Below are positions 3,572 to 38,629 of a DNA stretch of 64,000 nt, in pieces. Source of the DNA: Candidatus Latescibacterota bacterium (GTDB lineage Bacteria; Latescibacterota; UBA2968). The stretch's first letter is position 1, and each line of letters begins with the position of its first letter. The stretch spans positions 736,001 through 800,000 of the forward strand of contig OZ244960.1 in NCBI GenBank assembly GCA_965222605.1. The letters are read 5' to 3'. The position numbers and the translations under genes are program-made. Below the pieces are notes generated by a model. The model was not told the DNA's origin. It ran no database searches and was given only the letters and a program-made list of their open reading frames with translations.

Positions 3572-3584
3572 AAAAGGTACGATC

Positions 3585-6500
3585 ATGAAAACTTTCTGGC
3601 ATTGCATCCCCGCACTCACTTTGCTAATCTCAACAAGCATCGCACACGCGGGAGACGTGCGCGTGGTGGCAACGGGTGAAAACTGGGTGGAAGTTGTGGT
3701 GGATGCATCCGATATAGCTATCACCTCAGGATCGCCTTATGATCGCATAGACGTGCCGGGATGGATGTGGTTACACCAGCCGGGAGCACCTGCTGTACCT
3801 GTGCGCGGTGCAACACTGGGCATGCCTTATGGCTCTCGCGCAGTTGTTCAAGTGCTCAATGCAGACTATGAAGAAATCGAAGGTTTGGACTTGATGCCCG
3901 TGCCACAGACACAGTTGTTGGGATCTGAACAACATCCATTTTCGAGGTCGGTTTATCTGAGGGATGAGATAATTTACAACACGCCGGGATTTTATCCCGG
4001 TGCAGAAGCCGTTGTGGCGCACACGGGCATCTTGCGCGATCAACAAATCGCGATTCTGTCTTTGCGTCCAGTGCAGTACGACCCCGTTCAGCACAGACTT
4101 CGGATTGCACGACAGTTGCGCGTGCGCGTGTTATTTATCGCCGGTACAACGCCGTCACCTATTCGGCTTTTGAGAGACAGGGACGGTTTTGATCCCCTCT
4201 ATCAAAAGGGATTGCTCAATCCCGAACAGGCACGCTTCTGGCGCGGACGGCGCATTCGCGCGACAAAACGCGTACAGGATTGGTACGATCCCACAGCCAC
4301 GTATTACAAGATCAGAATTTTTGAAGATGGCCTCTACCGATTGAATGCGCGCTGGTTTTCCGAATCCGGCATTGTGTTGGCACCGGGAGATCTGGATCGG
4401 TTGCAGGTATTTTTAGACGGAAAAGAAATCCCGCTACTCATTGAAGATGGAGGCGATGGAGTGCTGTTTTGGGGCGCATTTCGGCGTGCGCCAGATCGAG
4501 ATTTTGAAAGTGAGTACGGCACAGAACGCGTCTATTTCCTGCGTATAGGTCGAGAATCCGGCTTGCGATATACACGGGCTGAGGACGCATCTACTAACGA
4601 GGTCACGACGCATTTTTGGTCGCGCAAACACGTTGAAATCGATTCGACCTATGAAGCCCTGGGACATGCGCGAAATGCCAACCGCGACCACTGGTTCTGG
4701 CAACGCACCGCATCTCCGTCGCGCCCGGGCGATATGCCCACAGATGTCGTAATGCCCGTACCTTTGCCGGGGCTGGCGCGCGAAGCAGGTGGCAACGCAC
4801 AAATTCGTCTGGGCATGCATTCGTTGACCCTGAACCAGGACATAAACCCCGATCACTACGCTATCATACAAATTCAGGATGGTCCGATCATCACAGAAGC
4901 GCGCTGGGATGGACAGGACGCCCATATAGCGACAGGCATAGTACCTGTATCGGCATTGTCAGATACCACATATATCGCGTTGCGAACGCCTGGCGATCCC
5001 TCGTTTCCATTCGATCCGATTCCTTATATCGACCACGTATATTTCAACTGGGTGGAGATTACCTATCTGCGGCGTTTTGAGGCCATAGATGGCATGCTGC
5101 GTTTTAATCCGGGCATTGTGCTTTCGCCGCGCGCGATCTCAATTGCCAATTTTGAACACGATCGGATTAGAGTCTTGAATTTGGACAAAAACAAGATTGT
5201 CACCACGGTGCGGGGTGACGAGGGGATTAGATTTGAGATTGCCGAAAGTGGCGATTTTGTCGCGGTGGATGAAACAGCAATAAAAACACCCAAACTCGCA
5301 GAACCCGATATACCTTATGATTTGCGCGGATTCTCTGGCGCAGAGTACGTGATTATTGCAGGTACAGATTTTATGGATGCAGCCGAGCGTTTGGCCGCGC
5401 ATCGGCAAGGGCAGGGGTTATCGACACTTGCGGTCAATGTGGCCGATGTATATGACGAGTTTTCCTTTGGACAAGTCGATGCCGAGGCCATTCGCCGTTT
5501 TGTACAATACGGATTTCACACCTGGACGCAACGCCCCGTGTACGTATTGTTGCTCGGGGAATTCAGCTTTGATTATCGCAATTTGTTTGGGCAAACTCGT
5601 ATTGCGCGTCACAACCTCGTACCGGGTATGCCCTTTCAATCTCCCAACCGCGGTCTGGCATTTACCGATGAGTTTTTTGGGCGAGTGGATGATGATTTGT
5701 TTATGGATGTATTTGTGGGGCGGTTTTCCGTACGCCGCGCATCGCAGGCCAATACAGTTGTACAAAAAGTGATCGCTTATGACGAAACGCCGTCGGCGCA
5801 ATGGCGCAACCGCATCACACTAATGGCAAATTGGGATGCACAGGACCCGTCTAAATTTGCCGCTCCGAGCGATATACTGGCAACAATTACACACGCTATC
5901 GGGCTGGAGAATTTCAAGGTATATCACGACGCAGATACGCCGCCCGAACCCAATGCCTCATCCCGCGAAGTTATTCGACAGATCAATGAGGGGCGTCTAA
6001 TTGTAAATTTTATGGGACATGGCAGTGCTTCATCGATGTCCAAATTCTTCGCCGGAACATTTCAGCAAGGGGCGTTCAATTACATGAGCCAAATTCAAAA
6101 TGCTGAACGCCTGCCCCTGTTTATCGGGATGTCGTGTCTCAATGGTTTGTATTGGGATCCGCGCATCATTAGTCTCGCCGAAGAAATGACCAATAAACCC
6201 GATGGCGGCGCAATAGCATATATTTCCTCGTCTTCTCTCTCTTTTATCCGCATTAACAACCAACTCAACACCGCGCTATTTCGACATATATTTGAAAATG
6301 GTGTACTGGCTTTCGGGCAAAGTCTTGCACTGGGCAAAATGACCGAACTCGCGGTTCTCCCTTCGAGTGAACTCGGACTGGTGGGAATGAATTTGATCGG
6401 CGATCCCGCACAACAAATCGCAGTACCGCAAAGCCCGGATTTTGTACTTGGCGATGCGGCGTTGCAGTTAGACCAGCAAGGCGAACTGACCACGGGAGAT

Positions 6501-9236: not shown

Positions 9237-9249
9237 AGTGAAAAGAATT

Positions 9250-10734
9250 ATGAAAATACTCGTCATAGGTCTGGATTGCGCGTCGCCCGATTTGATCTTT
9301 CAGCGATTTCGAGATGACATGCCCACCATCAGCAACCTGATCCAGACCGGAGTTTACGGCAACCTCAAAAGCACCATTCCGCCCATCACCATTCCCGCCT
9401 GGATGAGTATGGTAACGGGCAAAGACCCCGGCACACTGGGATTTTACGGGCTTCGCAACCGCGCCGATTATTCCTACAACCGTCTGTCTATCGCCAACTC
9501 AACTCTCGTACATGACGATACCGTTTGGGACATCATTTCTGCTGCGGGCAAAAAAGTAATCCTCGTTGGCGTGCCCCAAACCTATCCCCCCCAGCCAGTC
9601 AACGGCTGTCTGATCGCCTCTTTTCTCACACCGAGCAACAACAGTTCTTATACCTATCCCGACAGTCTAAAAGCCGAAATTGAGCGCGTATCCGATGGCT
9701 ACATTATCGATGTACGCGATTTTCGCACAGATGACAAAGCGCGCTTGCTCCGCGAAATTTACGCCATGACCGAAAAGCGATTTCGCGTGACCCGGCATCT
9801 CATGCAAACCCGTGAATGGGATTTTTGCATGCATGTGGAAATGGGCACAGATCGCATCCACCACGGATTCTGGCGATTTCTGGATCAAATCCACCGAAAA
9901 CACGACCCCAATTCCGAATTTGTGAACGCCATCCGCGACTATTACCGGTATCTCGATGGTGAAATCGCATCCCTAATTGCTCTAACTGGTAAAGACACAG
10001 CCATCCTTCTCGTCTCAGACCACGGTGCCAAGCGCATTGATGGCGGTATCTGCATCAACGAATGGTTGATCCGCGAAGGGTATTTGGTACTAAAAAAATA
10101 TCCCCACAAGCCCATGGCTTATGAGGATCTCGAAATCGACTGGGCAAAAACCACAGCCTGGGGTGCGGGTGGCTATTACGCGCGCATCTTTCTCAATATT
10201 GCCGGGCGAGAACCGAAAGGCATTGTACCACCCGAACAATACCATGTCTTACGCGATGAACTCTCGAAAAAAATCATGGACATTCCCGATGACAAAGGCA
10301 ATCCCCTGCCGACTCAGGTCTTCAAACCGGAGGATATTTACAGCACCATCAACAATATTCCCCCCGATCTGATCGTCTATTTTGGCGATCTGCACTGGCG
10401 CTCTGTTGGCACGATAGGCCATCGCGCCATCCACACCCTTGAAAACGACACCGGACCAGACGATGCCAACCACGCCCAACAAGGTATCTTTATCCTCAAA
10501 GACGGCACGCACACAGGCGAAAGATACAATCTGGAAATACGCGACATCGCACCGACCATACTCGGCCTCCTGGATATACCCATCCCCACCGACATGCAAG
10601 GCCAGGCAATAGTCAACGCGCCCTCAACGCATGCACCATCAGATGCACAGCCTGCACACACGGACAACGAGGTATATACAGAAGACGAAAAAAAGGCCCT
10701 TGAAGATCGACTCAGAGCGTTGGGATATTTGTGA
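9250..10734 (+). CDS. Alkaline phosphatase superfamily protein (type I phosphodiesterase / nucleotide pyrophosphatase)
   Basis: VIGLD, STIPPITIPAW..TGKDPG, VSDHG, NHAQQG, DIAPT motifs and C-terminal RLRALGY. Confidence 0.88.
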   Translation: MKILVIGLDCASPDLIFQRFRDDMPTISNLIQTGVYGNLKSTIPPITIPAWMSMVTGKDPGTLGFYGLRNRADYSYNRLSIANSTLVHDDTVWDIISAAGKKVILVGVPQTYPPQPVNGCLIASFLTPSNNSSYTYPDSLKAEIERVSDGYIIDVRDFRTDDKARLLREIYAMTEKRFRVTRHLMQTREWDFCMHVEMGTDRIHHGFWRFLDQIHRKHDPNSEFVNAIRDYYRYLDGEIASLIALTGKDTAILLVSDHGAKRIDGGICINEWLIREGYLVLKKYPHKPMAYEDLEIDWAKTTAWGAGGYYARIFLNIAGREPKGIVPPEQYHVLRDELSKKIMDIPDDKGNPLPTQVFKPEDIYSTINNIPPDLIVYFGDLHWRSVGTIGHRAIHTLENDTGPDDANHAQQGIFILKDGTHTGERYNLEIRDIAPTILGLLDIPIPTDMQGQAIVNAPSTHAPSDAQPAHTDNEVYTEDEKKALEDRLRALGYL

Positions 10735-11565
10735 TTAAACATCTCTATCATCCCGGGCAATCACATCCTCTTTGCGAAGCGGTTCCTCTGTGCATATCGA
10801 ATCCAGGAATGGATACGATATATGACTGCGCTTTGCTTCACGTCTTAAACGAAGTTGATAGAGTTCCCGCACACAACGTGCTTTTGTAGTTTCATCGAGT
10901 ACAGCGGGGCAGTGGCGTTGAATATAGTACAGCGCGTAACCCTTCTCCACTTTGATGGGGCCAATCACCCCACCTACCTCAGCGGCAAATAATAGGGGTG
11001 CAACGTCATTGGGAAAGTCTCGTCGCCCAAGACGGCCGAGATACCCACTAACAGGACGCGTTTGTTTATCGAGCGAATATTGACGCGCCAGAGTGTGAAA
11101 ATCTCGCCCTCCGTCCCTGATTTGCATGGCAATCTCTTCGGCAATATCCCGTTCATTAACCAGAATCCAGCATATTTCCCGACGTTCAGACGCCAGTTTC
11201 TGGCTTGCAAAATGAGCTTGAATCTGTTCAGTGGTGATTTGCGCTTTTAACCGCTCCTGGAGCATCTGATATTCAATTTCCCGTGCCATATCGGCAAAAG
11301 AGATATTGCGTTGCGATAAATAGTTCTCCGTATCCTCAACACTTTCCAATCTGTTTTTGTACCGCCATTGATCCATCCTCTTTTGCAGTTCATCACGAGA
11401 AATTTCAATTTTTTCTCGTTGGGCAATTTGAAAAACCAGACCGCGTTGCGTGAAGAAATCGTGCAATGTATCCTTGCCGGTCGCCCGCATGGATTTCACG
11501 ATATGGGATAAACGAATTTGCGTCTCGTCAATTTGAATGATGACGGGATCAATTAAATCAGCCAT
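10735..11565 (-). CDS. PpiC/parvulin-type peptidyl-prolyl isomerase (foldase)
   Basis: FHTLARQYSLD...GYLG...VIGPIK rotamase motif after a helical SurA-like region. Confidence 0.82.
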   Translation of the reverse strand: MADLIDPVIIQIDETQIRLSHIVKSMRATGKDTLHDFFTQRGLVFQIAQREKIEISRDELQKRMDQWRYKNRLESVEDTENYLSQRNISFADMAREIEYQMLQERLKAQITTEQIQAHFASQKLASERREICWILVNERDIAEEIAMQIRDGGRDFHTLARQYSLDKQTRPVSGYLGRLGRRDFPNDVAPLLFAAEVGGVIGPIKVEKGYALYYIQRHCPAVLDETTKARCVRELYQLRLRREAKRSHISYPFLDSICTEEPLRKEDVIARDDRDV

Positions 11566-12909
11566 CTACTCCTCTGGCGAAAGCGCGGCCATTTCGCGCA
11601 ATTGCCGCAGTGGATTGAGTGCGAGCATCAAAATGGACTGGCGATCTGTTATGATTTCCGCCGTGCCCTTCATGCCGAGCATGAATGCTTTTTCCTCACC
11701 GTGTACAAAAATGGTGGTGTTCTCCAGATCAATGATGCCTCTAAACACGGTTCCCGTACCCTCATCGCCCATTGCATCAGGTGAAATCTGTCTCAAATAG
11801 CCGTGCTGGATGCCGTAGTCCTGAAAGGGAAACGCTTCAAATTTGAGCTTTACCTTTTGTCCAGATGACAGCAGACCCACATCTTTGTTCAAGATCAGGG
11901 CTTCGGCTACAATCGGTGTCGAGGCCGGTGCGATGGTTACCAGTGTCTGGCCTTTATTAACCACTTGACCGGGTGTATTGACCAGAACTTGTGTGACGAT
12001 TCCCGATCCGGGTGCAAGAATCAAATCGATGTCCGCATCAACGGATCGGTTAACCGCTTGTTTCGCCCGTTTGAGTCTGATTGCTGCAATGTCATAAGCA
12101 TTTTGGAAATTTGCCCCGGTGCGTTCGATTTCGAGTCGTTCTTCGAGAATTTGGCGTTTTAAGTCCTTTAGGGAAACCTCATAGCGATTGATCTCTGCCA
12201 TCCGCGCGGGCAGTTCTGCCAATGCGCTCAGATAGCGAACTTTGGCTTCATTGAGGGCCGCAAGGCTGATGAGTTTTTTTTCGTACAATTTTTGGTTTTG
12301 CTCATATCGCTGTTTCAAATGTTCTACTTCTGCGGAGCGGAATTGTATTTCGATCTCAATGTCTGGGGGCTGGGAAGTTGTGTTCTGCGTTTCTGTGTGA
12401 TTTTCAAGTGCTTCCCTATAGGTCTCCATCGCGGTTTGCATGACGCGAACGCGATGTTCAAGCGCAGAAATGGTCTCCTTTGCCAAAATTCTTTTTTGCG
12501 GTAGGGTTTGTTGTAAATCAAATTCAGCTTGTTTGAAAGCGATCTCTGCTTGTTCCAATTCGTAGAACTCTTTGAGGGTTTCTTGCGAGCGAAGTCTGAA
12601 TAATATCTGTCCTTCGGCAATATGATCTCCCGAATGAATAGCGATTTCCTGGATTTCACCAGAACGCGGTGCCTGGATGTTCTGAACTTTTCCCAATGGG
12701 ACCAGACGGAATGGGGCCGTTGCGACAATATCGACCTGACCGTACCAGGCCCATGCTATGGAGATGGCAATAAAAAGCAGTAAGACATAAATAAGTGCGC
12801 GGCTGAAAAAGGGGTGCAATGACCCTAAAAACTCGATGGTGCTTTCGGCCAGGTCAGTTTCGTGTTCAAGCGGTTCTTCCCGTGGTTTTTCAACTTGAGC
12901 TTCAGCCAT
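11566..12909 (-). CDS. HlyD-family type I secretion membrane fusion protein
   Basis: N-terminal TM helix, lipoyl-like halves, long coiled coil, EAFPFQDYG and GMKGTAEI motifs. Confidence 0.92.
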   Translation of the reverse strand: MAEAQVEKPREEPLEHETDLAESTIEFLGSLHPFFSRALIYVLLLFIAISIAWAWYGQVDIVATAPFRLVPLGKVQNIQAPRSGEIQEIAIHSGDHIAEGQILFRLRSQETLKEFYELEQAEIAFKQAEFDLQQTLPQKRILAKETISALEHRVRVMQTAMETYREALENHTETQNTTSQPPDIEIEIQFRSAEVEHLKQRYEQNQKLYEKKLISLAALNEAKVRYLSALAELPARMAEINRYEVSLKDLKRQILEERLEIERTGANFQNAYDIAAIRLKRAKQAVNRSVDADIDLILAPGSGIVTQVLVNTPGQVVNKGQTLVTIAPASTPIVAEALILNKDVGLLSSGQKVKLKFEAFPFQDYGIQHGYLRQISPDAMGDEGTGTVFRGIIDLENTTIFVHGEEKAFMLGMKGTAEIITDRQSILMLALNPLRQLREMAALSPEE

Positions 12910-13014
12910 TGAAACTCCATAACTGATATTAAATGAGGAGTGTGCATAATTCTTGTGTTGTGGTACAACGACGTATAGAGTTTTTTTAATATTTTTCTTT
13001 TATGCCTTCGGCGA

Positions 13015-13046
13015 CTTCATTTTTTTGCGCGCCCAAAAAAATGAAG
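13015..13046. repeat. Perfect 13-bp-stem hairpin between the transporter and HlyD genes
   Basis: CTTCATTTTTTTG-cgcgcc-CAAAAAAATGAAG. Confidence 0.7.
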
Positions 13047-13180
13047 AAAAAAAAGGGCGCCCCTGCGGGGGGCTTGCACAGCGCGAATCGTTTGTGGGGA
13101 TTGCACGAAAGAAGGTGGCCTTCATAGTTTGGATGTATAATGGATGTCTGCTGCGATACGGACTTACGCGCTGTGCGAGT

Positions 13181-16156
13181 TTATACGACCTGTAATTGTT
13201 GTCCCGATAGATTATAATAAAGCCCGCGTTCTGCGATGAGCGTATCGTGCGTTCCCTGTTCGACGATATTCCCGTCATCCAGTACAAGGATTAAATCCGC
13301 ATCTTTGACTGTGCTCACCCGGTGGGCGATGATAAATGCGGTCTTACCTTCCAGCATGGTGTCCAATCCCTCCTGAATCGCCCGCTCGGACTCTGTATCC
13401 AGGGCATTTGTGGCTTCGTCAAAGATGAGGATTTTGGGGTCGCCATATAGTGCCCGGGCAATGGACAGGCGTTGCCGCTGACCGCCGGAAAGTCCCACGC
13501 CCTGTTCCCGAATTTTGGTTTCATATCCCATTGGCAGGTCTTTGATAAAGTCGTGGGCATAAGCGAGTTTGGAGACTTCCATCAAACGGTCCATATCGAC
13601 GTCTTTGACCCCGATGGCGATATTTTCGGCGATGGTGGCATTGAACATGACGGGTTCTTGCAAAACCATCCCCACCTGACGCCGCAGCCATCCGGGATCA
13701 AATTCGCGCAGGTCTGTATCATCGAGGGTGACGGATCCCTCTGTGGGATCAAATAGCCGGGGTATGAGTTTTACCAGCGTTGTTTTGCCAGCACCGCTGC
13801 GGCCAACTATGGCTACTTTCTGACCGGGCCTTATGTCCAAATTTATATCGCTTAAGACATAAGGCTCTGTCGATCCCGATCCATACCGAAAGAACACCTT
13901 GTCAAATGCGATATGTCCCTCTACGTCTGTGAGTTGAACCGAATAGTTGCGATTGCGCGATGACTCGGTTCGCATATCGTAGATATCGTTTAAGCGGTCC
14001 AGCCCCAATTTTGCCAGTTGAATCTGCGGCCACAGGTTGATCAATCCCATAATCGGTCCCAACACACTGCCGCTGAGCATATTGAAAGCGATAAGCTGAC
14101 CGACCGATAAGTCGCCCTGAATGACCAGATTCGCGCCATACCAGAGCACGACCGTGCTGCCCACAACACTGTTCAACTGTCCCAAAGACCCAAATAGCAT
14201 ATTTGTCTTAATCGCGGTAAAACCGATTTTTATCTCCTGAGTCAAGCGTTCTTCCCACAACCATCGCGTGGATTTTTCGACTGCGAGGGTTTTTATGACC
14301 TCAATCCCGCGCAGGGAATCGATGAGCACAGATGACCATTCCGAGCGGGCGAGAAAAGAGCGCTGGTTGATGGACTTGAGGATTGGGGTGTAGATTAAGG
14401 TCAGGACAATGCTAAATGGTATGAATGCCAGAACCCAAAGTGTCAAAGTGGTGTGGTAATAGAACATCAGGCCCAGATAGACAAAGATCATGACCGCATC
14501 TAAGACGGCTGAAATAGCCGTTTCTGTCAACAAGCTCCTCAAGTACTGGCTCTCTCGAAATCGCGTCATGATGTCACCGGTTCTGCGCAGGGCGAAAAAC
14601 CGCATGGGCAAACGGAGAAGATGATGGTAGATATGCGATAACATCGAGATGCTGATGCGCGCACCCACATATCCAATCAGGTAGTTGCGCAGTGATGATG
14701 TGGCTATCCGAAATAAGGCGATGATGATCATGCCCATGAGCAGGAGATTGAGCAGACCGGTATCCTGGTGAACGAGGACTTGATCGAGGATCATCTGGGT
14801 GAACAGGGGTGAGGCAAGGCCAAAGATATTCAGCACAAGGGAGGCCATCGTAATTTCGGTGAGAATACCGAGATATGGGCGGGCGAGCGGGAAAAACCGC
14901 CTGAACGATGATTTTCTCCCCCTATATCTCGAGACCTTGTCGGTATATTCGAGTATTAAGGCGAGTTTGGACCACTTGTCTTCAAATTCTTTGCGGGAAA
15001 TTTTTCTGCGCCCGAGCGCGGGGTCTGCTATCCAGGCGTATTTTGAATTGATCCGATACAGGACGACAAAGTGATAGCCTTCCCAGTGCGCAATGAGGGG
15101 CAGGTCTCTTTCTCCGATTTCACTGTATCCTATCCGCACGCCGCGCGTTAGAAAGCCCAGGTTTTCAGCGGCTTCGGCAAGTGCGGATAAGGATGTGCCT
15201 TCCCGCGAGACATTGGCCATGTCTCGCAGGCGATTTAATCCAATGGATCGCCCGTAATATTGACAGATCATGCCGAGACAGGCCGCGCCGCAATCGGTCT
15301 CATCGTGTTGCTTGATATAGGGAAATGTGATGTAGTTGCGCAGTTTTCGAGGACTTTGATCCGAGATGCTATTTTCAGGCTCGATCTCTATCGTTTTAAT
15401 TCGACCATTTTGCGGCAATGTTTCGAGCGGCTCTTCTTGTTCATCCTGGGCAGTTTTCTCGAAAACCCGAATGAGTTGGGGTGCTCTTTCAAGCACGCTA
15501 ACAAGGTCGATGTGCGAAAGGATGTAAAGCACCACTTCTGTTTCAGTTTCAATAATGAGCTGATCATCTGTGCCGCCAAAAAACTCACCCGGCTTTAATC
15601 TTTTGGCGGGTTGGTCCGCCTCTTTCAATCGCAAGGTTCCGCGCCCAATGAGATAGAGCCTTTTTGCTTCTTCATCCCTCCATACTGCTTTTTCCCCTGC
15701 TGCAATAACCTTTCGCTCCAGACATTGAAAGAAAAGCTGCATGGCTTCATGGAGGTTTACAGTGTCCAGTTCTATGAATTTTGTGAAGTCCCGATAGGCG
15801 ATGTCTCGCACCTGATCAAGCAGGTAATATTTCAGTTCTCGATACTCTGATACGAGGGCACGAAAGTTGCTCTGAGAAATTTTCAGCACGGTTGAGGGTT
15901 CAACCGCCCGAACCGTTGCCCTGCGCGGTTTGCCCGTGAGCAACGCGCCTTCTCCGCAATGGTCGCCGGGAAAGAGATAGCTTAGGGTTTGCATCTGGTC
16001 ATTGCTGTCTCTCGTTAAGACCCTGAGTTGCCCAGATACGACATAATAAAAGCAATCGCCCCTATCGCCTTCATAAAACAAGACCTCTCCGAGATTGGCC
16101 TGCATTTCCTCTGCATGAGGTCTCAGAGAGGCATATAGATCGGTTGGTTTCATCAT
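13181..16156 (-). CDS. Peptidase-containing ABC transporter (PCAT) with N-terminal cNMP-binding domains, C39 peptidase, TMD and ATPase
   Basis: cNMP domain (GDHCGE..RRATVRA) plus a second degenerate one; C39 QHDETDCGAACL, HWEGYHFVV, IADP; Walker A GRSGAGKT; LSGGQRQR; ILIFDE. Confidence 0.95.
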   Translation of the reverse strand: MMKPTDLYASLRPHAEEMQANLGEVLFYEGDRGDCFYYVVSGQLRVLTRDSNDQMQTLSYLFPGDHCGEGALLTGKPRRATVRAVEPSTVLKISQSNFRALVSEYRELKYYLLDQVRDIAYRDFTKFIELDTVNLHEAMQLFFQCLERKVIAAGEKAVWRDEEAKRLYLIGRGTLRLKEADQPAKRLKPGEFFGGTDDQLIIETETEVVLYILSHIDLVSVLERAPQLIRVFEKTAQDEQEEPLETLPQNGRIKTIEIEPENSISDQSPRKLRNYITFPYIKQHDETDCGAACLGMICQYYGRSIGLNRLRDMANVSREGTSLSALAEAAENLGFLTRGVRIGYSEIGERDLPLIAHWEGYHFVVLYRINSKYAWIADPALGRRKISRKEFEDKWSKLALILEYTDKVSRYRGRKSSFRRFFPLARPYLGILTEITMASLVLNIFGLASPLFTQMILDQVLVHQDTGLLNLLLMGMIIIALFRIATSSLRNYLIGYVGARISISMLSHIYHHLLRLPMRFFALRRTGDIMTRFRESQYLRSLLTETAISAVLDAVMIFVYLGLMFYYHTTLTLWVLAFIPFSIVLTLIYTPILKSINQRSFLARSEWSSVLIDSLRGIEVIKTLAVEKSTRWLWEERLTQEIKIGFTAIKTNMLFGSLGQLNSVVGSTVVLWYGANLVIQGDLSVGQLIAFNMLSGSVLGPIMGLINLWPQIQLAKLGLDRLNDIYDMRTESSRNRNYSVQLTDVEGHIAFDKVFFRYGSGSTEPYVLSDINLDIRPGQKVAIVGRSGAGKTTLVKLIPRLFDPTEGSVTLDDTDLREFDPGWLRRQVGMVLQEPVMFNATIAENIAIGVKDVDMDRLMEVSKLAYAHDFIKDLPMGYETKIREQGVGLSGGQRQRLSIARALYGDPKILIFDEATNALDTESERAIQEGLDTMLEGKTAFIIAHRVSTVKDADLILVLDDGNIVEQGTHDTLIAERGLYYNLSGQQLQVV

Positions 16157-16211
16157 ATTCTCAAATGCAACAAATGCCTGGGGTTATGTATGAAAGGAAT
16201 ATATGCGATAC

Positions 16212-16266
16212 GTAGAGGCGGTGCCCCCGTATAAAAGCACTACGGGGCAGGCTCCTGTGCCCGCCC
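16212..16266. repeat. REP-like GTAG-type palindromic element
   Basis: GTAGAGGCGG...CCCGCCC enclosing the inverted repeat TGCCCC(C)GTA...TACGGGGCA. Confidence 0.45.
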
Positions 16267-16308
16267 GTTCTGATCCTTTTTGTTTCGACCCGTTTTGCAT
16301 ATAATCGT

Positions 16309-16909
16309 TTACTCAGCTTCAAATACACCCCACTTTGAGTCGGGTGAGTCCTTGATTATTTCATTGTCCGAAAGCAGGACATGAAATCTGTATCGACTTC
16401 TGCTAAAAGGCATCCAGGTATAAATGGAATAGCAACGGCGGCAAGCCGTTATCTTGAACTCTGTGTCGCATGGAATACAGTCCCAAAACCCTGCCGGTTT
16501 TCTTTGGCATCGCAGGCACTCAACTTGTTCAATCAGGTTTTTATTTCGTTCCTGGAATTTCGCCAATTCATTAGGAGACACTACGGAGCCTATATACCAT
16601 ACACCTGAAGAGTTGCACACCTTGCAAAGATCTTTCGTCACCATCCATCGTTCGTTTTTCGCCCGAAAAATCATCGTACACAATCAGGCAATTGTTACAA
16701 GCGAAAATGCCCTCCACGCCTGGCTCGCGGTCCTCAAACCGCCTGAAGTATTCCAGAATATCGGCCTTATCATCATCGGGCAATTTTTCATAAGGCTGTA
16801 TTTTGGATCCACACTCCTCACAGGAGTAGCCAAAGAAATTCTTTGCCAATCTACCACCAATTCCCAGGAATACGATAATGAGAATGGTCAAAATAATAAA
16901 CGCTTCCAC
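16309..16909 (-). pseudogene. Frameshifted membrane-anchored multi-CxxC (zinc ribbon) protein
   Basis: ORFs 16571..16909 (TM, CEEC, CNNC) and 16309..16683 (CKVC, CLRC, CIPC, CRRC) overlap in different frames and join near 16630; AGGA RBS before the GTG at 16909. Confidence 0.6.
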
Positions 16910-17201
16910 GGTCGGTTCCTCATGTTAGTGGTTATTGCTACGTCCTCTGCCCTACGGTTTTGCATCCTGCTCATACTCACTGCGCTGCATTGTAGAGCTT
17001 GCACTGGAGCAATGTCACGCGCAGCACAACGCCAGTAATCCAGTGCCGCGCCTGCGCTGTAGTTGACCTTGCCTTTTCTCTACTCCATTATCCTATCTGC
17101 CTCTGGCACATGGAGATGCTACGTTCTCTGATCTACGGGTTTTCATCCCTGTTCATCGGTGGTTATCGGTGGTTGCTTTTTTGGGGTTGCTTTTATCTTA
17201 T

Positions 17202-18560
17202 CTATTCAATCAATTCTTTGACGCCGTGAACGCGAATATCAACTTCAGGCAAGTGTTTATTCAGAATGTCTGTGATGTGATCCTGTGGTCCGACAAAGAT
17301 CATGATCATATTTTCTGGCACAAAGAACTTTTCGAGAAAAGCTCGCACCTCAGCATCAGTGACTGCATCATAACCGCCTTTTCGGTGTGGTCTGTTGTAA
17401 ATGGCTTTATTTACCTCACGGTCAAGACTTCGTTGGGGTGTCAGGTTATGGACATAAGAAACTTTGAGAATCTCACGTCTTTCTTTTAGTGCCTCCCAAA
17501 AACGAGGGTTATCGGAAAGTCCTCGGATGAAATCGGACATTTTTAAGATCAATTCTTCGCTGTTATGAAGCTGGGGATCAGCATAAATATTAAGATATCT
17601 GATGCCTTCTGACCATCGTATCTGACAAGAAGGGCCATAGACCAATCCCAATTTTTGTCTGAAATACCGATGAATCAGACCTTGGGCATCATCCAGAAGT
17701 GCATCTGATACGAGTGTGGTAATATAGGTTTCTTCACCAACACTACCACAGGGGATTAACCAAGAGCAGAACACACTCTTTACATTTGAATTAAAGACAA
17801 AAGCCGAAGAACCAATGTTATAATCCGTTGTTGGAAATTTCAGTGAATGCACAAACCCGCTTGCCTGCCTACCTGAGGCAGACGCAAGCAGGCCCGCCTG
17901 CCGTGTCTCTATAATTGGACTAAGCAACTTAGTAACCTCAGTGGAATCGAGATCTGAAATCACCTTAAAAAACACCACGTCTGTTTTCAGTAGTCGATCA
18001 TAATATTGCGTGATGTCCTTAAGCGAGAGATTCATCAGCGTTTTTAAGGACTTGAGTTTCTTGATGCCTTTTGTTTGTGCAACTGCAAAATTTCTCATAA
18101 GCGGAAGGGGGGTTCTCCTGAGATAATTCTGGTAATCAGTAACCATCAGTTTTTTCACGTATCGCAAGTCAGACTCAGAAAATTCGAGATTATATATGAG
18201 ATTGCGAACTATTTCTATGGACTCAGCGCAGTTCTCAGATAGACCATAAATAGATATTGTATGGTAAAGGGTCTGGGTAGAGACATTTAGACGGGTACCT
18301 AATGCTTCCAGTTGATCCATGTGCCCATGCTTTTTGGCAGCTTCCTGAATCAATTTTGAGACTGTTACTGCAAGCCCAATCTGAGAAGGTGGTTCCTGTT
18401 TGCTTCCCGCACCGAGGAAGACAGTCTCAATTTTTGTCAACGGGGCGCGTTTGTCGTTGGAATAAAAAATATGATGGTTGGAAATTTCTGCATAAGCGGG
18501 CAAGACGCCAACCACGTAACACAGGGCAGCGTTAAGCATCACTTTCAGAAACATATTCAT
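17202..18560 (-). CDS. M16B peptidase-like subunit, non-catalytic, secreted
   Basis: GAGSKQEP..QIGLA region without HxxEH; RQKLGLVYG (R/Y pair); signal peptide; overlaps the upstream M16 gene. Confidence 0.8.
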   Translation of the reverse strand: MNMFLKVMLNAALCYVVGVLPAYAEISNHHIFYSNDKRAPLTKIETVFLGAGSKQEPPSQIGLAVTVSKLIQEAAKKHGHMDQLEALGTRLNVSTQTLYHTISIYGLSENCAESIEIVRNLIYNLEFSESDLRYVKKLMVTDYQNYLRRTPLPLMRNFAVAQTKGIKKLKSLKTLMNLSLKDITQYYDRLLKTDVVFFKVISDLDSTEVTKLLSPIIETRQAGLLASASGRQASGFVHSLKFPTTDYNIGSSAFVFNSNVKSVFCSWLIPCGSVGEETYITTLVSDALLDDAQGLIHRYFRQKLGLVYGPSCQIRWSEGIRYLNIYADPQLHNSEELILKMSDFIRGLSDNPRFWEALKERREILKVSYVHNLTPQRSLDREVNKAIYNRPHRKGGYDAVTDAEVRAFLEKFFVPENMIMIFVGPQDHITDILNKHLPEVDIRVHGVKELIE

Positions 18561-20034
18561 TAGCCTTTCGAGAGAACTTCCGATGCATTTTTTTTCCACC
18601 CCATACCAACAATGCAACAAGACATCCCAACAGTGTTAGAAGACCTACGCATGCCAATACTATAATTCCATAGGCTAAGGGGGTTCGCGGAGGGGATTTT
18701 TTCGTTTCGGGCATGGTTAAGGAATGGGTTATCGAATTGTCATCTCTCAAGTATTGATCAATGATGCGCGGGATATCTTCTCTACGAATGGATTTGAGGT
18801 TTTTTATCAATTTGGGATATAAGAGGGGATTGTTGGCGTGAGCGAATGCCTGCCCAAATGAAGAAGCCATACTTGAGCGATTGTAAAATGTGGAATACAG
18901 TGTGGTCAACTGCTGGTTTCGAGCCGCATTGAGTTCTGTTTCGGAGATTGATTTCAGTTTTTCTAATTCTGATTGGATCATGGCATGAAGCGTATTTCTG
19001 GACGTATCATGGGGCAGTTCTGCATAGCAACTCATCAAGCCAAATCCTTTATAGCTGTTAAGCGACACGCTGAAAGATTTTGCAAGCCCTGAATCAACTA
19101 AAGAAGACCTCAATGAATTTGAGGGTTTCTCCAAAACGCGCTCCAAAATGAGCAGGCCAGCATAGTCGCGATGTCCTAAATTGGGTATGTACCAGCCCTT
19201 TCTGAATATGGTAAGACTGAAACTTTTCGAAGTGAGTTTTAATCTTTTTCCGAGCACTTCATAGTTAGGGTAGTAAGGCGCGGGCAATTCACTCGATAAC
19301 TTGTCTGGTATTTGCTCATTGCCATAAGCTTCATCCAGTTTTGTCAGGACATGCTCGACATCCACATCGCCGATCACAACAATCAATCTCTTTTGCAAGC
19401 GCAGAAAATTCTCATAGTAATCTTTCAAATTATCAGGTTTGAGTTGTTTAAGAAAATCCTCCCCACCAAGGCCATTAAAATTTTTCTTTTCATAGATTAA
19501 GCTAAAAAAATAATTCGCAGATCTGCGTGTTGGACTTGCCAGTCTGCGGCTTCTTTCTGTCAGGATGATTTTCTTGTCCTTTTCTACGACTTCCTCATTG
19601 ATTACTGTGTTGTAATATCTATCCGAGTCTATCTCAACTGCGAGGTCAAATTTATCCTTCGGAAAACTGAGTATGAAGCGCGTATAATGATAAGAAGTAG
19701 AGGCGTTTTTCCACCCCCCATTCTTGCTAACGATTTGGTTGAGTTTCCCATACTCATGACTTCCTGTACCTGACATGATATGCTCTAAGAAGTGTAGCCG
19801 TCCTTGTTTCCCTTCCGCTTCATCTGCTGAGCCAGCACCGTAGTAGGTCTGGTATTCAAATGTGGGAGATGTTCTATCTACCACGATAACAGCGTCGAGA
19901 TTGGGATTGATGGTATAATGTTGAGCGACGAGTTCTTTAGATAATGCTTCTGTTCCAATAAGCTGGTAGGCCGTGCAAGTACCTGTCGGTAAGACGCATA
20001 TAAGGAATGAGATGATCGCGCAGGTTTTTATCAT
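18532..20034 (-). CDS. M16B (pitrilysin family) zinc peptidase, catalytic subunit, with signal peptide and C-terminal TM anchor
   Basis: GSADE..G.LHFLEH inverted zinc motif, NASTS, VVIGDVD; hydrophobic C-terminal helix followed by basic residues. Confidence 0.9.
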   Translation of the reverse strand: MIKTCAIISFLICVLPTGTCTAYQLIGTEALSKELVAQHYTINPNLDAVIVVDRTSPTFEYQTYYGAGSADEAEGKQGRLHFLEHIMSGTGSHEYGKLNQIVSKNGGWKNASTSYHYTRFILSFPKDKFDLAVEIDSDRYYNTVINEEVVEKDKKIILTERSRRLASPTRRSANYFFSLIYEKKNFNGLGGEDFLKQLKPDNLKDYYENFLRLQKRLIVVIGDVDVEHVLTKLDEAYGNEQIPDKLSSELPAPYYPNYEVLGKRLKLTSKSFSLTIFRKGWYIPNLGHRDYAGLLILERVLEKPSNSLRSSLVDSGLAKSFSVSLNSYKGFGLMSCYAELPHDTSRNTLHAMIQSELEKLKSISETELNAARNQQLTTLYSTFYNRSSMASSFGQAFAHANNPLLYPKLIKNLKSIRREDIPRIIDQYLRDDNSITHSLTMPETKKSPPRTPLAYGIIVLACVGLLTLLGCLVALLVWGGKKMHRKFSRKANEYVSESDA

Positions 20035-20103
20035 GTTTGATACTCAGCAAAGTTGGAAGTGGCTGCTTCGTCTATATGTCTGGATACATTTTTACACTAC
20101 ACA

Positions 20104-21476
20104 CATTAGTTTCTGGTTAGCAAATTGCTGTTGATCAAAGTCAAAGGTCTTTATGCTGATAGCAAAGGCTCAGGAGGCACCATACGACATAAATGTGGAT
20201 ATGGATAGGGGGGTTGGCGTGGGCTTCCTGTCGTATATCCCACCTGAGTTGTCTCAGATAGGTCACACAAGGTTTGTCATCATAGCGTTGATGGAAGTAG
20301 ATAACCAGCAAGAGATAGGTGATCAACCCAGCAAGGAGTTGTATCAAGACCCCGTGTGGACTACGCGAGATGAGATGATAGACCTTGAGGTATTTTTTCC
20401 ACCATGCAAAGAAGATTTCGATTTTCCACCTCAAAGAATAGATGAAGGCAATTTCCTCGGCAGACAAGTCGTCACGGTCTGTGACAACCCAGTAGGTTTT
20501 GCCACAGGCAGAAAAACCGACTAAAAAGACCGGATGAGTCATTTGATGGTTCTCATCTCCCAATAAGACCTTGGCAAAGAAGGAGATCGTGGCCTCGCCT
20601 CGTGGTTGATAGGCTCTTGGTTGAAAAGCCAATCGCTCAAGGATGTGATATTGGATGTTTTTCTTGACGCGTACGACGAAGTGCTTTTCGTCATTGATCC
20701 ACGCATCGAAGCGGGCATGTTCTTGATAGCCGCGATCCATCACGCCGGTCTGTCCTTTCTCCAAGAGCAAGGACACAAAGGGTCTTTCGGCGGCCTTGCC
20801 ATCGGATAGAAAAATCTTGCGTGGGATGGCTCCGTTTAAGTCGAATCCGAAGTGCAACTTGGCCTTGCGTTTGTGGCGGCTATAATCTGCCCAGGTCATG
20901 GACAAACACGCATCAACGAAACTCCCATCAATGGCGATGAGTCCCCGATGGCGTGGCAGGGCAAGACCGACCTTTTTGGCGGCTGTCTTGGACAGTCTGG
21001 AGAATAACTCGAACATCTGCTTTTTGCCCCGCGTGGTATTGGCCTCATAAAAGGTACTTTGTCCCAACCCTGAAGGCGGCACCAAAAGCTGGTTGGCAAG
21101 TCCGTCACATCCGGCGGCCTGCAACAGGTCTTGGGCAGAACTGCATGCTTCGATATGATAATACACCAACCCGCGCACTTGATGAGAAAACGTATAAGTC
21201 ATCGGCTTATTACATCTTGAAGTCAACGGTGTCAGATAGGGCAAGTGCGCTTCAAGAGGGGACAGCAGCAAAGAAAAGGTTGGCGATGCTTTTCCATATT
21301 CATTTTCTTCACCCGTAGGAAATAGGGGGGACTGAGACTGGATGGACATGGCATTACTCCTTGCAAAAGGTAGAATTTTTCTTTCTCAACTCTAACCTTT
21401 CATGGAAATGCCTTTTGTTCAATCCTTTTCTTTCCTCGCTATCTCCTCCATGCAAATCCCTAACCAGAAACTAATG
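20104..21476 (-). mobile_element. IS4-family insertion sequence, 1373 bp
   Basis: Perfect 17-bp terminal inverted repeats CATTAGTTTCTGGTTAG (20104-20120) and CTAACCAGAAACTAATG (21460-21476); 8-bp target duplication ACTACACA (20096-20103, 21477-21484). Confidence 0.95.
20141..21349 (-). CDS. IS4-family DDE transposase
   Basis: IAIDGS, VMDRGY and YSLRWKIEIFF (YREK signature); AGGAG RBS. Confidence 0.93.
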   Translation of the reverse strand: MSIQSQSPLFPTGEENEYGKASPTFSLLLSPLEAHLPYLTPLTSRCNKPMTYTFSHQVRGLVYYHIEACSSAQDLLQAAGCDGLANQLLVPPSGLGQSTFYEANTTRGKKQMFELFSRLSKTAAKKVGLALPRHRGLIAIDGSFVDACLSMTWADYSRHKRKAKLHFGFDLNGAIPRKIFLSDGKAAERPFVSLLLEKGQTGVMDRGYQEHARFDAWINDEKHFVVRVKKNIQYHILERLAFQPRAYQPRGEATISFFAKVLLGDENHQMTHPVFLVGFSACGKTYWVVTDRDDLSAEEIAFIYSLRWKIEIFFAWWKKYLKVYHLISRSPHGVLIQLLAGLITYLLLVIYFHQRYDDKPCVTYLRQLRWDIRQEAHANPPIHIHIYVVWCLLSLCYQHKDL

Positions 21477-21619
21477 ACTACACAGTATAAAATTTGGAGG
21501 TTCTTCCAGCAAGCGTAAAAGAACCTCCCTCGAAAATCCCAGGTTGACGAAATAGACTGCTTGCCTCAATCACCTTTACTATCTTCTATACCGTCATCTT
21601 CAAGAATATCGCCACAAAT

Positions 21620-22249
21620 TTAGACTAATACCTGGCTGCTGTCGTCCAAATCAAAGTCCCCCTCCATACCATCCAAATCCTCATTACCACTACCGTCATC
21701 TTCCTCATCCAGACGTTGTCTTTCCTCCTCTTCACGTTGTCTTTCCTCCTCCTCCATTGCCTCTATCTCTGCCTGTATCTCTGCCTCAATTTCAGCATCT
21801 TCCGTCAGATATATGTCATAGTTCTCTGCTACAAAGTCAACTACAGAGTCAACTGCGTTATTCCATTCATCAGCTATCTCATTCACAATTTCAGATGGAC
21901 CTGGGATATTAGGGTCCCATTCAACGATATCACTCACTATATCAGCAGCCGCTTCGATGAGATCAGGGGACCCTATAACTGTCCCATCTCCACTCGAACG
22001 GGATAACGACACCACTTTTCCACCTTTCGGGACTGGGTCCACGATGATTACCTCCACAGGTTCGCAGCAAGGATCTATGCAATAAGGACCGCATCCTGTC
22101 CCTTCCTCAAGCCCTCCTGGGTCGCCATCACCATTTCCCCCCCGAGCCATGCTCATTTCTTCTGGCGAAATGGCCTCAGAGAGAATGGCGAGCGGTTTGC
22201 AGGTAAGCCCCGCGATGGATAGGGTGTGTTCAAGAATATTTTCTGGCAT
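21620..22249 (-). CDS. Putative PCAT substrate/precursor with a double-glycine leader, Cys-rich N-terminal core and highly acidic tail
   Basis: Residues 27-38 ISPEEMSMARGG fit LSxxELxxIxGG; AGGAGG RBS; co-oriented upstream of the C39 transporter. Confidence 0.75.
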   Translation of the reverse strand: MPENILEHTLSIAGLTCKPLAILSEAISPEEMSMARGGNGDGDPGGLEEGTGCGPYCIDPCCEPVEVIIVDPVPKGGKVVSLSRSSGDGTVIGSPDLIEAAADIVSDIVEWDPNIPGPSEIVNEIADEWNNAVDSVVDFVAENYDIYLTEDAEIEAEIQAEIEAMEEEERQREEEERQRLDEEDDGSGNEDLDGMEGDFDLDDSSQVLV

Positions 22250-22876
22250 GATACAACCTCCTGTTAAGGTTTATACTGCTTTTACGAGCAACAACGAATG
22301 GTGTACAGCCGGCTGTTCTCCAATACACACATAATAGCCATACACCCACACATAGCAAATCCATTGGGCAATCGTCGTGGAAAGTTGAAATTCCAGCACT
22401 GACGCTGTGCTGCTTGTGCGTGTTCGCACGCAAACAGGCGCGTGGGGCAGGTGGCCCCGCAGCGGAAAACAGCAAAGGGGGGTGACGCGCCCTGATAAGG
22501 ATTGGCGTTGGCTGTGCGTTGGAAAGTACTGAGGAAAGATCGTGCGAAGAAGAGGAGAGATTGTGCGAATGCGGGAAATGCGGAATGGGAAAAAGGTCGG
22601 TAGAAAGAGGGTTTAAATCTACCCCCCCCCCCCGATCTTCGTAACTTCATAAAAAACAACTACTTGTGTAAATTTTAGGGAGATCGTGACATACTTCAGC
22701 CACGTTGTGGAAACGATGAATGGCTCCGCAATGGTGCGAAGGTTTGAAACAAACTGATACAAGGTCTTCTCCTTTGGATTACGAGACAAACTCTAAAACT
22801 TAGATACAAAATAAGCCCGTCTATTCGGGCTGTCAAGTATTTTTTATAAAGGCATGCAAAGCGGCAACGTATCGGA

Positions 22877-23029
22877 TTAAAAGGTGACTGGTGAGTCGGA
22901 TGGTGTTCTGCCTCTGGAGATTGGGCCGGGCTGACCGCTGACTGCTTGGGAAGGGGGTCCTATGTGTATTTCGATGGCCGCTAATTCGCTGCGGATGCGC
23001 TCGGCACTGACAATGTGGCGGGCGATCAC
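22877..23029 (-). pseudogene. Truncated HEPN/HepT-like toxin remnant
   Basis: GTG start overlaps the MNT stop (GTGA); VIARHIVSAERIRSELAAIE resembles the N-terminus of the usual partner, then degenerates. Confidence 0.5.
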
Positions 23030-23397
23030 AGCTCGATCCCTTCGCGTTTGATAATCGCTCTTAGAGAAGGCCGGCAACAGGCTATATCGACCAAATTCAC
23101 TTCAATATCCGGGTCGAGGTCCATGACCGCGCCCAGGGCACGCCAGGTGTCTTCTGGTCGCAGTCCCCAGGCGGCAATATCCACATCGGACCAGCGGTTG
23201 AACCCATCCTCGTGCGCCAAAGAGCCAAAGAGCACGACCTTATCGACATTGAAGCACGCCTCAAGCAAACGGGCAGCCCGTCGCGCCAGCACCCAAGCAC
23301 GCTGACGACGTACGCGTAAACGCTCCTTTTCGGCGTGGTGACGCTCGCGGGCACCTTCTCGGTAGGTAGCCATTTCAGTGGGTGTTATCATTTTCAT
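23026..23397 (-). CDS. Minimal nucleotidyltransferase (MNT) antitoxin-like protein
   Basis: VVLFGSL...SDVDIA motif. Confidence 0.88.
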   Translation of the reverse strand: MKMITPTEMATYREGARERHHAEKERLRVRRQRAWVLARRAARLLEACFNVDKVVLFGSLAHEDGFNRWSDVDIAAWGLRPEDTWRALGAVMDLDPDIEVNLVDIACCRPSLRAIIKREGIEL

Positions 23398-23560
23398 TAC
23401 TCTTGAAACCCCTCATGATGCGCAGGGTCAAAGCCTCTTTGTGAAAAGGAATAGCAGTGTATTTGCGAAAATTAAAGTTACGGCCGGGTATCAAGACAAA
23501 TCCAAAACTGACTATAACGGATCGCAGCGGTTTCATTAGACCGGGATTAGATACTGACCA

Positions 23561-38167: not shown

Positions 38168-38629
38168 TCATGGCTTCAATTTTTCAAAAAACTGTTGGCG
38201 ATCCCGTTGAAAAACAACCCGCACTTTTTCTGCAATCTCCACGAGATGCGCGAGTTTTTCAAAATCCAATTCTGAAAGATATGCATGCCTGAAAAAATGC
38301 CGAAATCGGCGCAATTCATCTAAAAGGGTAAACGCCTCCTCAGATATACATGCAGGACGAATACCCTCAATCGTCAAACGCATTCGACGCAGCAAATCTG
38401 TGTGATAACGCTCGCCCGCGATATTATTTTCAAAAAATTGGGCAATTATTTCAAACACCTGTTCAAAAGCGCAATAGAGGTTGTGAAGCTGATATCCCAT
38501 GCTATCGAGACTTTCTGTGCGATTGCCAAATTCGGAATGTCGTTCCTCAATGCGCGCGTAGATCTGATCAATCTGCCCATAGAGATCTTCTACTTCCGCC
38601 TTTAACAGGGCGTATCTTGCTTCATCCAT
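38168..38629 (-). CDS. HEPN-domain (HepT-like) ribonuclease toxin
   Basis: LHNLYCAFE and RRFRHFFRHAY (Rx4H). Confidence 0.85.
   Translation of the reverse strand: MDEARYALLKAEVEDLYGQIDQIYARIEERHSEFGNRTESLDSMGYQLHNLYCAFEQVFEIIAQFFENNIAGERYHTDLLRRMRLTIEGIRPACISEEAFTLLDELRRFRHFFRHAYLSELDFEKLAHLVEIAEKVRVVFQRDRQQFFEKLKP

Follow-up and report, generated by a model that had tools for sequence, protein, structure and literature searches.

A double-glycine cargo, its putative exporter and an adjoining M16 protease pair in a Candidatus Latescibacterota genome

Introduction

What is the role of a pair of M16 proteases encoded between the gene of a double-glycine precursor and that of its putative exporter? 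The question is raised by a locus at positions 10735-22249 of a 64,000-nucleotide stretch of DNA from a Candidatus Latescibacterota bacterium (assembly GCA_965222605.1, contig OZ244960.1, positions 736,001 to 800,000), which is referred to here as the window. The locus encodes a 209-residue precursor, two M16 proteins (M16A and M16B), a peptidase-containing ATP-binding cassette transporter (PCAT), an adaptor of the HlyD family and a PpiC/parvulin-like protein. A first-pass annotation, made from the sequence alone, had named these genes and noted that they are co-oriented; all are found in place and all are on the minus strand. It had further proposed a possibly undescribed system, resembling the pathways of peptides that are made on ribosomes and modified after translation (RiPPs) or of protein export, with purely proteolytic and extracytoplasmic maturation, and this interpretation is partly supported. 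The explanation that we favour, with moderate confidence, is a double-glycine cargo export system specific to a lineage of Latescibacterota type, in which the C39 peptidase domain of the PCAT cuts the precursor after G38 and the M16 pair then acts on the cargo.

The precursor family

The precursor gene (21620-22249, minus strand) is a 209-residue open reading frame (ORF) with GGAGG 8 nucleotides 5' of its ATG. Its product comprises a 38-residue double-glycine leader and a 171-residue acidic core with four cysteines arranged as C-x3-C-x3-CC, and is matched by no Pfam or NCBIfam family and by no curated leader model. The classical consensus for such leaders is LSxxELxxIxGG, with hydrophobic residues at -4, -7 and -12, Glu at -8 and a terminal GG (or GA/GS). 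The leader of the window ends in I27-S-P-E-E31-M32-S-M-A35-R-G37-G38, and the last 12 leader residues in the family read ISPxEMxxAxGG. Judged by its sequence this is a double-glycine leader with a predicted cleavage site after G38, and the terminal glycine pair already pointed out in the first-pass annotation is invariant in 27 of 27 aligned relatives.

In this 27-sequence alignment the first 38 residues hardly vary, the remainder is hypervariable, and the strictly invariant leader positions are L20, I22, L23, S24, I27, E31, M32, G37 and G38. A protein search gave 69 relatives of the precursor; in a sample of 300 pairs from 68 proteins, leaders share a median identity of 84% and cores one of 23%. 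A profile search recovered 33 clusters among 1.84 billion representatives, a number that indicates a narrow leader family; 31 of them match from residue 1, and the two weakest match in core regions alone and lack a leader.

The 84 cores analysed have a median length of 139 residues, are composed of 28% Asp and Glu and 3% Lys and Arg, and carry a median net charge of -37, which reaches -44 in the core of the window. They are built as mosaics from modules that recur, among them SSGTQDxNGG, ECTVPxDCG, WDWLT, GMEGDF and C-x3-C-x3-CC. The number of cysteines is even (zero counted) in 71 of the 84 cores, and 10 cores have none. A toxin domain is not recognisable in any core. The AlphaFold2 (AF2) model of the precursor, built on an 8-row alignment, is of low confidence (predicted local distance difference test, pLDDT, 46), with the C-terminal helices alone modelled. 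The cargo is a protein of about 170 residues once the leader is removed, rather than a small peptide.

The exporter trio

The PCAT (13181-16156, minus strand; 991 residues) has two cNMP_binding stretches within residues 1-260 (E-value 2.1e-29), followed by Peptidase_C39 (138.6 bits, Pfam), ABC_membrane and ABC_tran domains. It matches PCAT1 and ComA over its full length, with a six-helix ABC membrane domain and an ATPase. The catalytic Gln, Cys, His and Asp of the C39 domain, the last three of which had been noted in the first-pass annotation, align with those of LahT150 (6mpz) and PCAT1 (4ry2). The protein can thus be assigned by domain content to the PCATs, as a C39 domain with all four catalytic residues joined to an ABC exporter and ATPase, and within them to the long (cNMP/CAP_ED) type, with cNMP-type domains N-terminal to C39. 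It reaches no NCBIfam equivalog cutoff, the nearest model being TIGR01193 (511 against 524).

The HlyD adaptor (11566-12909, minus strand) is recognised by Pfam and exceeds the cutoff of TIGR01843 (214.9 bits against 208.65), and hydropathy places a membrane helix at its residues 30-48. The PpiC/parvulin-like protein (10735-11565, minus strand) has a Pfam Rotamase match of 1.3e-12 and aligns with positions 92-326 of the 340 of TIGR04500, 'putative peptide maturation system protein', at 68.2 bits, below the cutoff of 180. It has no signal peptide or membrane segment (the top hydropathy over 19 residues is 1.57) and, lacking a signal peptide, is predicted to be cytoplasmic. The motifs required for C39 cleavage and export are all present in the locus.

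A Pfam scan covered 49 ORFs of the window, namely 12 of the cluster and its flanks and 37 others of at least 150 residues. Of the three parts of a type I exporter, the ABC transporter and the HlyD adaptor are present, and none of the 49 ORFs reaches the score cut-off of the OEP/TolC family; the sole trace of OEP is in the HlyD protein itself (20.0 bits, under a cut-off of 22). A gene for an outer-membrane factor may lie elsewhere in the genome. The same scan gave no YcaO, LanM or Radical_SAM match at cut-off, as the first-pass annotation had stated for the cluster. A RiPP cluster combines a precursor with a core-modifying enzyme, and the latter is absent from the window.

The M16 pair

M16A (18532-20034, minus strand; 500 residues; Pfam Peptidase_M16 and M16_C) contains HFLEH at residues 81-85 and E160, a spacing from HxxEH to Glu that is typical of enzymes of the M16B type in the table of a review of the family (PMC12731061). 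HFLEH is kept in 119 of the 120 M16A homologs listed. Its partner M16B (17202-18620, minus strand) also has the Pfam M16 and M16_C domains and lacks HxxEH, which is absent from all 12 copies of this protein. A subunit with HxxEH and Glu beside a motif-less subunit of M16 fold is the composition of heterodimeric M16B-type proteases, to which the pair can be assigned at the level of sequence. The best relatives of M16A in the PDB are 5euf, 3amj (the active subunit of a Sphingomonas heterodimer) and the beta subunit of the mitochondrial processing peptidase (MPP). NCBIfam PqqF gives a weak match (E-value 4e-4; 19 bits, where the cutoff is 320).

In M16A simple hydropathy shows a signal-like N-terminus and, at 450-468, a C-terminal membrane helix with basic residues after it; such a helix is seen by the same measure in 82 of the 120 homologs listed. 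M16B probably starts at the ATG at 18560 (MNMFLKV...) and would then carry a signal peptide, and the signal-like N-terminus, ending after the A of A-EI, is conserved in 12 of 12 copies. From the signal-like N-termini of both proteins and the C-terminal anchor on the active subunit, the M16 pair is predicted to face the periplasm.

The M16 subunits have isoelectric points of 8.5-8.7, as against the net charge of -44 of the cargo. A complex prediction with M16A 41-440, M16B 45-472 and core 39-209 scored 0.00 in both runs. A tblastn search of plasmids with M16A returned 144 records, the 25 listed being 22-25% identical and 24 of them annotated as pitrilysins, which gave no lead.

Linkage of cargo, protease pair and exporter in related loci

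The family alignment, used to scan species-representative genomes, gave eight loci (L001 to L008), seven of them in records titled as Candidatus Latescibacterota metagenome-assembled genomes and one in a record titled 'uncultured bacterium'. The proteins of the window were mapped onto these loci and their ORF lists, and neighbours were counted with leader genes and transposases skipped. In all 13 cases the next counted gene after a leader gene is an M16 gene. The PCAT-HlyD-PpiC trio ends the array in five of the eight loci (L003, L004, L005, L007 and L008); L002 retains a 59-residue PCAT fragment only, and the fetched stretches of L001 and L006 stop inside the arrays. The linkage of precursor, M16 pair and transporter in other genomes, on which the first-pass annotation had made its interpretation depend, is therefore strongly conserved.

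Units of leader gene, M16A and M16B are found in tandem, with three each in L001 and L002 and two in L004, and the tandem units of the relatives precede one shared exporter. The full unit of the relatives runs in the order response-regulator/AraC gene, leader gene, hairpin, M16A, M16B, TerB-like gene and a gene for a Cys-rich membrane protein. At least one further unit outside the window, with leader protein P0032 and an M16A, P0086, that is 76% identical, is inferred for the source genome.

The exporter trio is 85-93% identical between the window and its relatives (PCAT 92-93% in L003, L004, L005, L007 and L008; HlyD 91-93%; PpiC-like protein 85-87%), as against 63-84% for M16A and 55-79% for M16B. 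Within a single genome the M16A paralogs share 63-81% identity, and in the tree of this protein copies cluster across genomes according to the type of unit and not by genome. The C-x3-C-x3-CC cores (of the window and of the units L001b and L002b) all go with one M16A clade, and both cores with the module 'GLGPLGGT' go with another. Clades that cross genomes show old, co-inherited units of cargo and protease, and do not by themselves prove co-adaptation.

Proposed mechanism

The following sequence of events would account for these observations. The 209-residue protein would be made with its 38-residue leader, and the cytoplasmic C39 domain would cut after G38 during transport of the 171-residue core from the cytoplasm by the ABC part and HlyD, as family knowledge suggests. 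A nucleotide ligand of the two N-terminal cNMP-type domains would probably gate export, and the PpiC-like protein may serve as a cytoplasmic chaperone or isomerase for the Pro-rich precursor. On the periplasmic side a heterodimer of active and inactive M16 subunits would then act specifically on the cargo of the adjoining gene. The extracytoplasmic maturation proposed earlier agrees with the M16 step and not with the rest, the C39 domain being cytoplasmic by PCAT topology and the PpiC-like protein having neither signal nor membrane segment.

The genetic coupling of cargo and M16 pair is observed, and the pair may either process or neutralise the cargo. The reaction is most likely a second, endoproteolytic maturation cut. 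This is favoured by the fact that the M16 pair is duplicated and diverges with the cargo, the exporter staying constant, and by a precedent in lanthipeptide pathways, where heteromeric M16 proteases do not cleave the leader of an uncorrelated lanthipeptide (PMC10885120).

Several observations weigh against this explanation. The three leader genes of L004 share one M16 pair, and 4 of the 14 M16A genes lack a leader gene immediately before them (those of L001a, L002a and L003a and a partial one that follows PpiC in L007). The 'DPIDWN' class of cores breaks the clade pattern, L005 and L008 not being sisters, and the match between core class and M16A clade would also be expected from plain co-inheritance of linked genes. 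No C-terminal anchor is seen by hydropathy in 38 of the 120 M16A homologs listed. No gene for an outer-membrane factor was recognised among the scanned ORFs of the window, and under one-step export a periplasmic protease would miss the cargo. In the window itself the M16 genes are cut off from the hairpin and the sequence upstream by an IS4 element, and one accessory gene carries a frameshift; the copy may be impaired by both and may fail to work as a unit.

A bolder form of the proposal, about which we are doubtful, is a polymorphic system in which a nucleotide-gated PCAT serves many hypervariable, acidic, Cys-paired proteins, each needing, or being neutralised by, its own periplasmic M16B-type heterodimer. 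If true, this would be a protease-based layer of specificity, either a private convertase or an immunity by protease, for which no counterpart has been described among PCAT or type I systems. The family of the cargo is here unambiguous from linkage, and as the M16 pair is duplicated with each cargo gene, the idea of 'one cargo, one protease pair' is directly testable. The cargo itself, with about 140-170 residues, a charge near -37 and a mosaic make-up, is unlike the usual bacteriocins and RiPPs and could represent a new class of secreted protein in an uncultured phylum.

State of the copy in the window

One of the other explanations, which we regard as rather improbable, is that the copy in the window is a decaying, non-working remnant of a family that is functional elsewhere. 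Two features that bear on it, an intact IS4 element and a frameshifted Cys-rich gene in the 1-kb gap between M16B and PCAT, had not been noticed in the first-pass annotation. The IS4 element (20104-21476, minus strand; transposase gene 20141-21349) lies between the hairpin and M16A. It is 1373 bp long with 17-nucleotide terminal inverted repeats, and its 402-residue transposase matches NF033592 at 176.7 bits against a cutoff of 115, as well as DDE_Tnp_1. A perfect 8-bp direct target duplication, ACTACACA, flanks it at 20096-20103 and 21477-21484. The point of insertion is 8 bp inside the conserved sequence that directly follows the hairpin, upstream of M16A, and the flanks rejoined without it give the uninterrupted sequence that lies between leader gene and M16A in the relatives. 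The insertion was therefore simple and recent, the precursor having once been about 210 bp upstream of M16A, and the element is foreign to the ancestral system.

Transposases also interrupt L001, L003, L005, L007 and L008; with the element of the window, they make the arrays seem prone to insertions.

The Cys-rich gene (16312-16909, minus strand) has intact homologs of 190-200 residues between M16B and PCAT in L001, L003, L004, L007 and L008. The product, of about 200 residues, has six CxxC pairs and a membrane helix at its N-terminus; searches assigned it to no family, its best hit in the ESM Atlas (0.84) is no lead, and its AF2 model, from 6 rows, has a pLDDT of 41.8. The copy of the window is frameshifted by a 2-nucleotide deletion between 16626 and 16627, which may be genuine decay or an error of assembly. 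Also missing are two genes of the relatives, the response-regulator/AraC gene and the TerB-like one, and the window holds a reduced single unit, with an IS4 insertion, no regulator and one accessory gene frameshifted.

The 776 bp upstream of the precursor (22250-23025) occupy the position of the regulator gene in the relatives; they contain no convincing gene and have a run of about 12 G near 22625-22636.

Damage is seen among the relatives too, as in the replacement of M16A by a transposase in L003 and the PCAT fragment of L002. In L007 the PCAT and HlyD form one ORF of 1146 residues (14541-17981), with residues 1-820 of PCAT joined to residues 114-446 of HlyD, which suggests a deletion that fused and probably inactivated both. 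Against a remnant stand the full-length ORFs of precursor, M16A, M16B, PCAT, HlyD and PpiC, the high identity of the trio to its relatives, the perfect target duplication that marks the insertion as recent, and the chance that the frameshift is an assembly error.

The hairpin (21496-21528, minus strand), of 13 bp with a U-run, is terminator- or attenuator-like and lies directly 3' of the precursor gene; it is the best terminator-like match in the region. A hairpin with U-run follows 9 of 14 leader genes (in the window, L001, L002, L004, L006, L007 and L008), and over the 9 sequences 3 of the 13 pairs show compensatory changes and no pair is broken. The sequence TTTTATACTGTGTAGTG downstream of it is likewise conserved. 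An Rfam scan of window positions 10000-23500 assigned the hairpin to no family. Its position agrees with an attenuator that keeps the cargo-to-enzyme ratio high. Promoter and terminator totals, being at chance (21 vs 19.1; 14 vs 12.8), were dropped as evidence.

A possible protective role for the M16 pair

The chief rival to a maturation role is that the M16 pair is a protease of self-protection or clearance. The acidic cargo would then be a polymorphic competition or effector protein, and each unit would bring its cognate periplasmic protease, which destroys the cargo on its leakage into, or re-entry to, the periplasm of the producer. We consider this unlikely, though several features would suit it. 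The layout is bacteriocin-like, with variable units of cargo and partner ahead of one conserved exporter; the cores are hypervariable and mosaic, with shuffled modules; and the four M16A genes without an adjacent cargo gene recall orphan immunity genes. Insertion sequences and ParE-like toxin-antitoxin genes occur in and around the arrays, and the table of the review of the family (PMC12731061) has an entry for an M16 protease degrading Cys-rich peptides of the host. The hairpin between the cargo and M16 genes fits maturation and protection alike. On the other side, none of the cores has a recognisable toxin domain. A charge of about -37 is moreover unlike that of known membrane-active bacteriocins, and two proteins of about 450 residues each would be an expensive form of immunity, for which no precedent has been described.

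Small gene pairs with a weak match to ParE toxins are located at 3549-4179 of L001 and 18933-19533 of L003, beside M16 pairs or the exporter.

An ABC importer adjoins the arrays of L001, L003 and L007. Re-import of peptides by it was considered and rejected, as its ATPase is of the MalK/TOBE (sugar) type.

A possible radical-SAM route to modified cores

Less probable still is a true RiPP-like pathway, in which a radical-SAM/SPASM enzyme encoded elsewhere cross-links the cores through Cys thioethers, the M16 pair trims them, and the lack of a tailoring enzyme at this locus is accidental. A PqqD-radical-SAM-SPASM enzyme heads the arrays of L004 (318-1748) and L008 (6616-8067), the two copies being 90% identical. 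Its best NCBIfam models, all under cutoff, are the SCIFF thioether maturase, the nif11-peptide maturase and QhpD, and it may cross-link cysteines in some cores. The earlier claim that there is no tailoring enzyme and that maturation is purely proteolytic thus holds for the window and fails for two of the eight related loci. The even cysteine numbers, often found inside Asp/Glu-rich motifs, would agree with such a pathway, and the N-terminal half of the leader, which precedes the helix usual in double-glycine leaders and is no less invariant than the double-glycine part, would fit a second partner such as a PqqD-type domain.

Against it, the enzyme lies within 10 kb in two of the eight loci only and the 64-kb window has no radical-SAM enzyme. 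No more than 5 protein clusters reach 84% identity to the enzyme, compared with more than 120 clusters of the M16A family, and none of the 120 radical-SAM matches listed was traced to the genome of the window. The cores devoid of Cys also count against it.

That the adjacency is incidental and the M16 pair a housekeeping periplasmic peptidase unrelated to the double-glycine protein, which might be argued from the many bacterial M16B-type pairs whose substrates mostly are not known (PMC12731061, in part), is very improbable and already contradicted by the M16 genes that follow 13 of 13 leader genes and by the duplication of leader gene and pair together, as often as three times in a locus.

Comparison with known systems

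Among described systems, this gene set has its closest parallel in the group II bacteriocin clusters of cyanobacteria, known from genome mining alone. The survey (PMC3140520) counted 23 clusters over 15 genomes, and its Table S2 names M16 for group II alone. As far as these clusters are described there and in a later account (PMC4558948), they share with the present locus a long CAP_ED-C39-ABC protein, HlyD, a rotamase (SurA/PpiC), M16, several double-glycine precursors and frequent transposases, and their authors had already inferred a second cleavage site (PMC3140520; PMC4558948). All five components are present in the window, a match of gene content only, with group II known here by description. 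Since the same content has been catalogued in silico, the gene set cannot be called undescribed, as the first-pass annotation had suggested it might be.

The differences are nevertheless several. Group II precursors, as described in those accounts, are of 39-152 residues and of the NHLP, N11P and HetP-like kinds, whereas here a single 38-residue leader precedes acidic cores of median length 139 residues; an APH_ChoK-like kinase listed for group II is absent here; and the phylum is Latescibacterota and not Cyanobacteria. Tandem units of cargo and M16, and response-regulator/AraC, TerB-like and Cys-rich genes, do not figure in the available portions of the group II accounts (PMC3140520; PMC4558948). 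What sets the locus apart is the phylum, the single invariant 38-residue leader on long, extremely acidic, mosaic cores, the tandem units of cargo and M16, and the regulator and accessory genes. The M16 genes of the cyanobacterial clusters, noted since 2011, have never been assigned a role or tested. A tblastn search of plasmids with the N-terminal region of the PCAT has identified a cNMP-PCAT, HlyD and PpiC trio without M16 on a Nostoc plasmid.

PCATs of the long, cNMP-bearing type are widespread, and in the portions of the literature cited here a cargo has been demonstrated for PteB only. In PteB of Synechococcus elongatus the conserved Cys of C39 is needed for efficient secretion of the double-glycine proteins EbfG1-4, which are not antibiotics, and HetC has a similar domain organization (PMC4997328, in the part cited). 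HetC of Nostoc requires its cNMP-type domain in vivo and binds ppGpp, not cAMP, in vitro; according to the part of the report cited its cargo is not known (PMC10986499), whereas the cargo is evident from linkage here. The PteB paper (PMC4997328) mentions neither 'HlyD' nor 'isomerase', and the HetC paper (PMC10986499) has no mention of 'M16'. An M16 partner is not described for PteB in the portion cited (PMC4997328), although no search of that text was aimed at M16.

The combination of an HxxEH subunit with an inactive one is shared with AlbE/AlbF of subtilosin, PttP1/PttP2 of class III lanthipeptides and MPP. Those proteases act inside the cell or organelle. Here both subunits have signal-like N-termini and the active one is anchored, so that action in the periplasm, after export, is predicted. 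MPP is known to cut targeting sequences off whole proteins (PMC12731061, in part). Coupling to a PCAT is not reported for AlbE/AlbF, PttP1/PttP2 or MPP in the portions of the sources cited.

With the export of class II microcins and colicin V (CvaAB-TolC), and with type I secretion, the locus shares a double-glycine leader, a C39-ABC protein and an adaptor of the HlyD family. The substrates of type I secretion are typically acidic and Cys-poor, and the cargo is alike in this respect. Microcin leaders have 15-19 residues, as against 38 here. In comparison with class II microcin export the present locus has extra cNMP domains, no TolC-type gene among the scanned ORFs of the window and no small immunity gene, and its cargo is far larger and more acidic than class II microcins. 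PADLOC gave no system-specific match, with hits at the level of domains only (the cNMP domain to Pycsar effector models, and the ABC ATPase). A literature search returned no account of this system in Latescibacterota.

Accessory genes of the relatives

A gene for a response regulator with an AraC-type DNA-binding output has been identified upstream of leader genes, twice in L001 (8921-9775 and 14767-15621), twice in L002 (8932-9714 and 14085-14693) and once in L003 (9034-9825), with a fragment in L007 (9459-9809). No histidine kinase is seen near these genes.

The TerB-like gene follows M16B in five loci: L001 (7338-7739), L002 (18524-18916), L003 (12990-13412), L004 (10770-11171) and L005 (14615-15037). 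Its product is a cytoplasmic protein of 130-140 residues with no Pfam or NCBIfam match. It falls near TerB/DjlA-N-like clusters in the Atlas (0.93; 187 of 256 features), which is taken as a lead only.

Other features of the window

The locus is preceded on the plus strand by a gene (3546-9236) for a protein of 1896 residues with a C25 (gingipain-type) peptidase domain and its propeptide, CARDB and FlgD-Ig. After it comes a gene of the Phosphodiest family (type I phosphodiesterase/nucleotide pyrophosphatase; 9223-10734), which converges on the cluster. Beyond the cluster are a gene for a nucleotidyltransferase of the Polbeta type (23026-23397) and a HepT-like gene (38168-38629). Between 42482 and 56046, on the plus strand, proteins with He_PIG, PKD and SprB repeats are encoded; two of these have dockerin domains, and their genes alternate with family-less ORFs.

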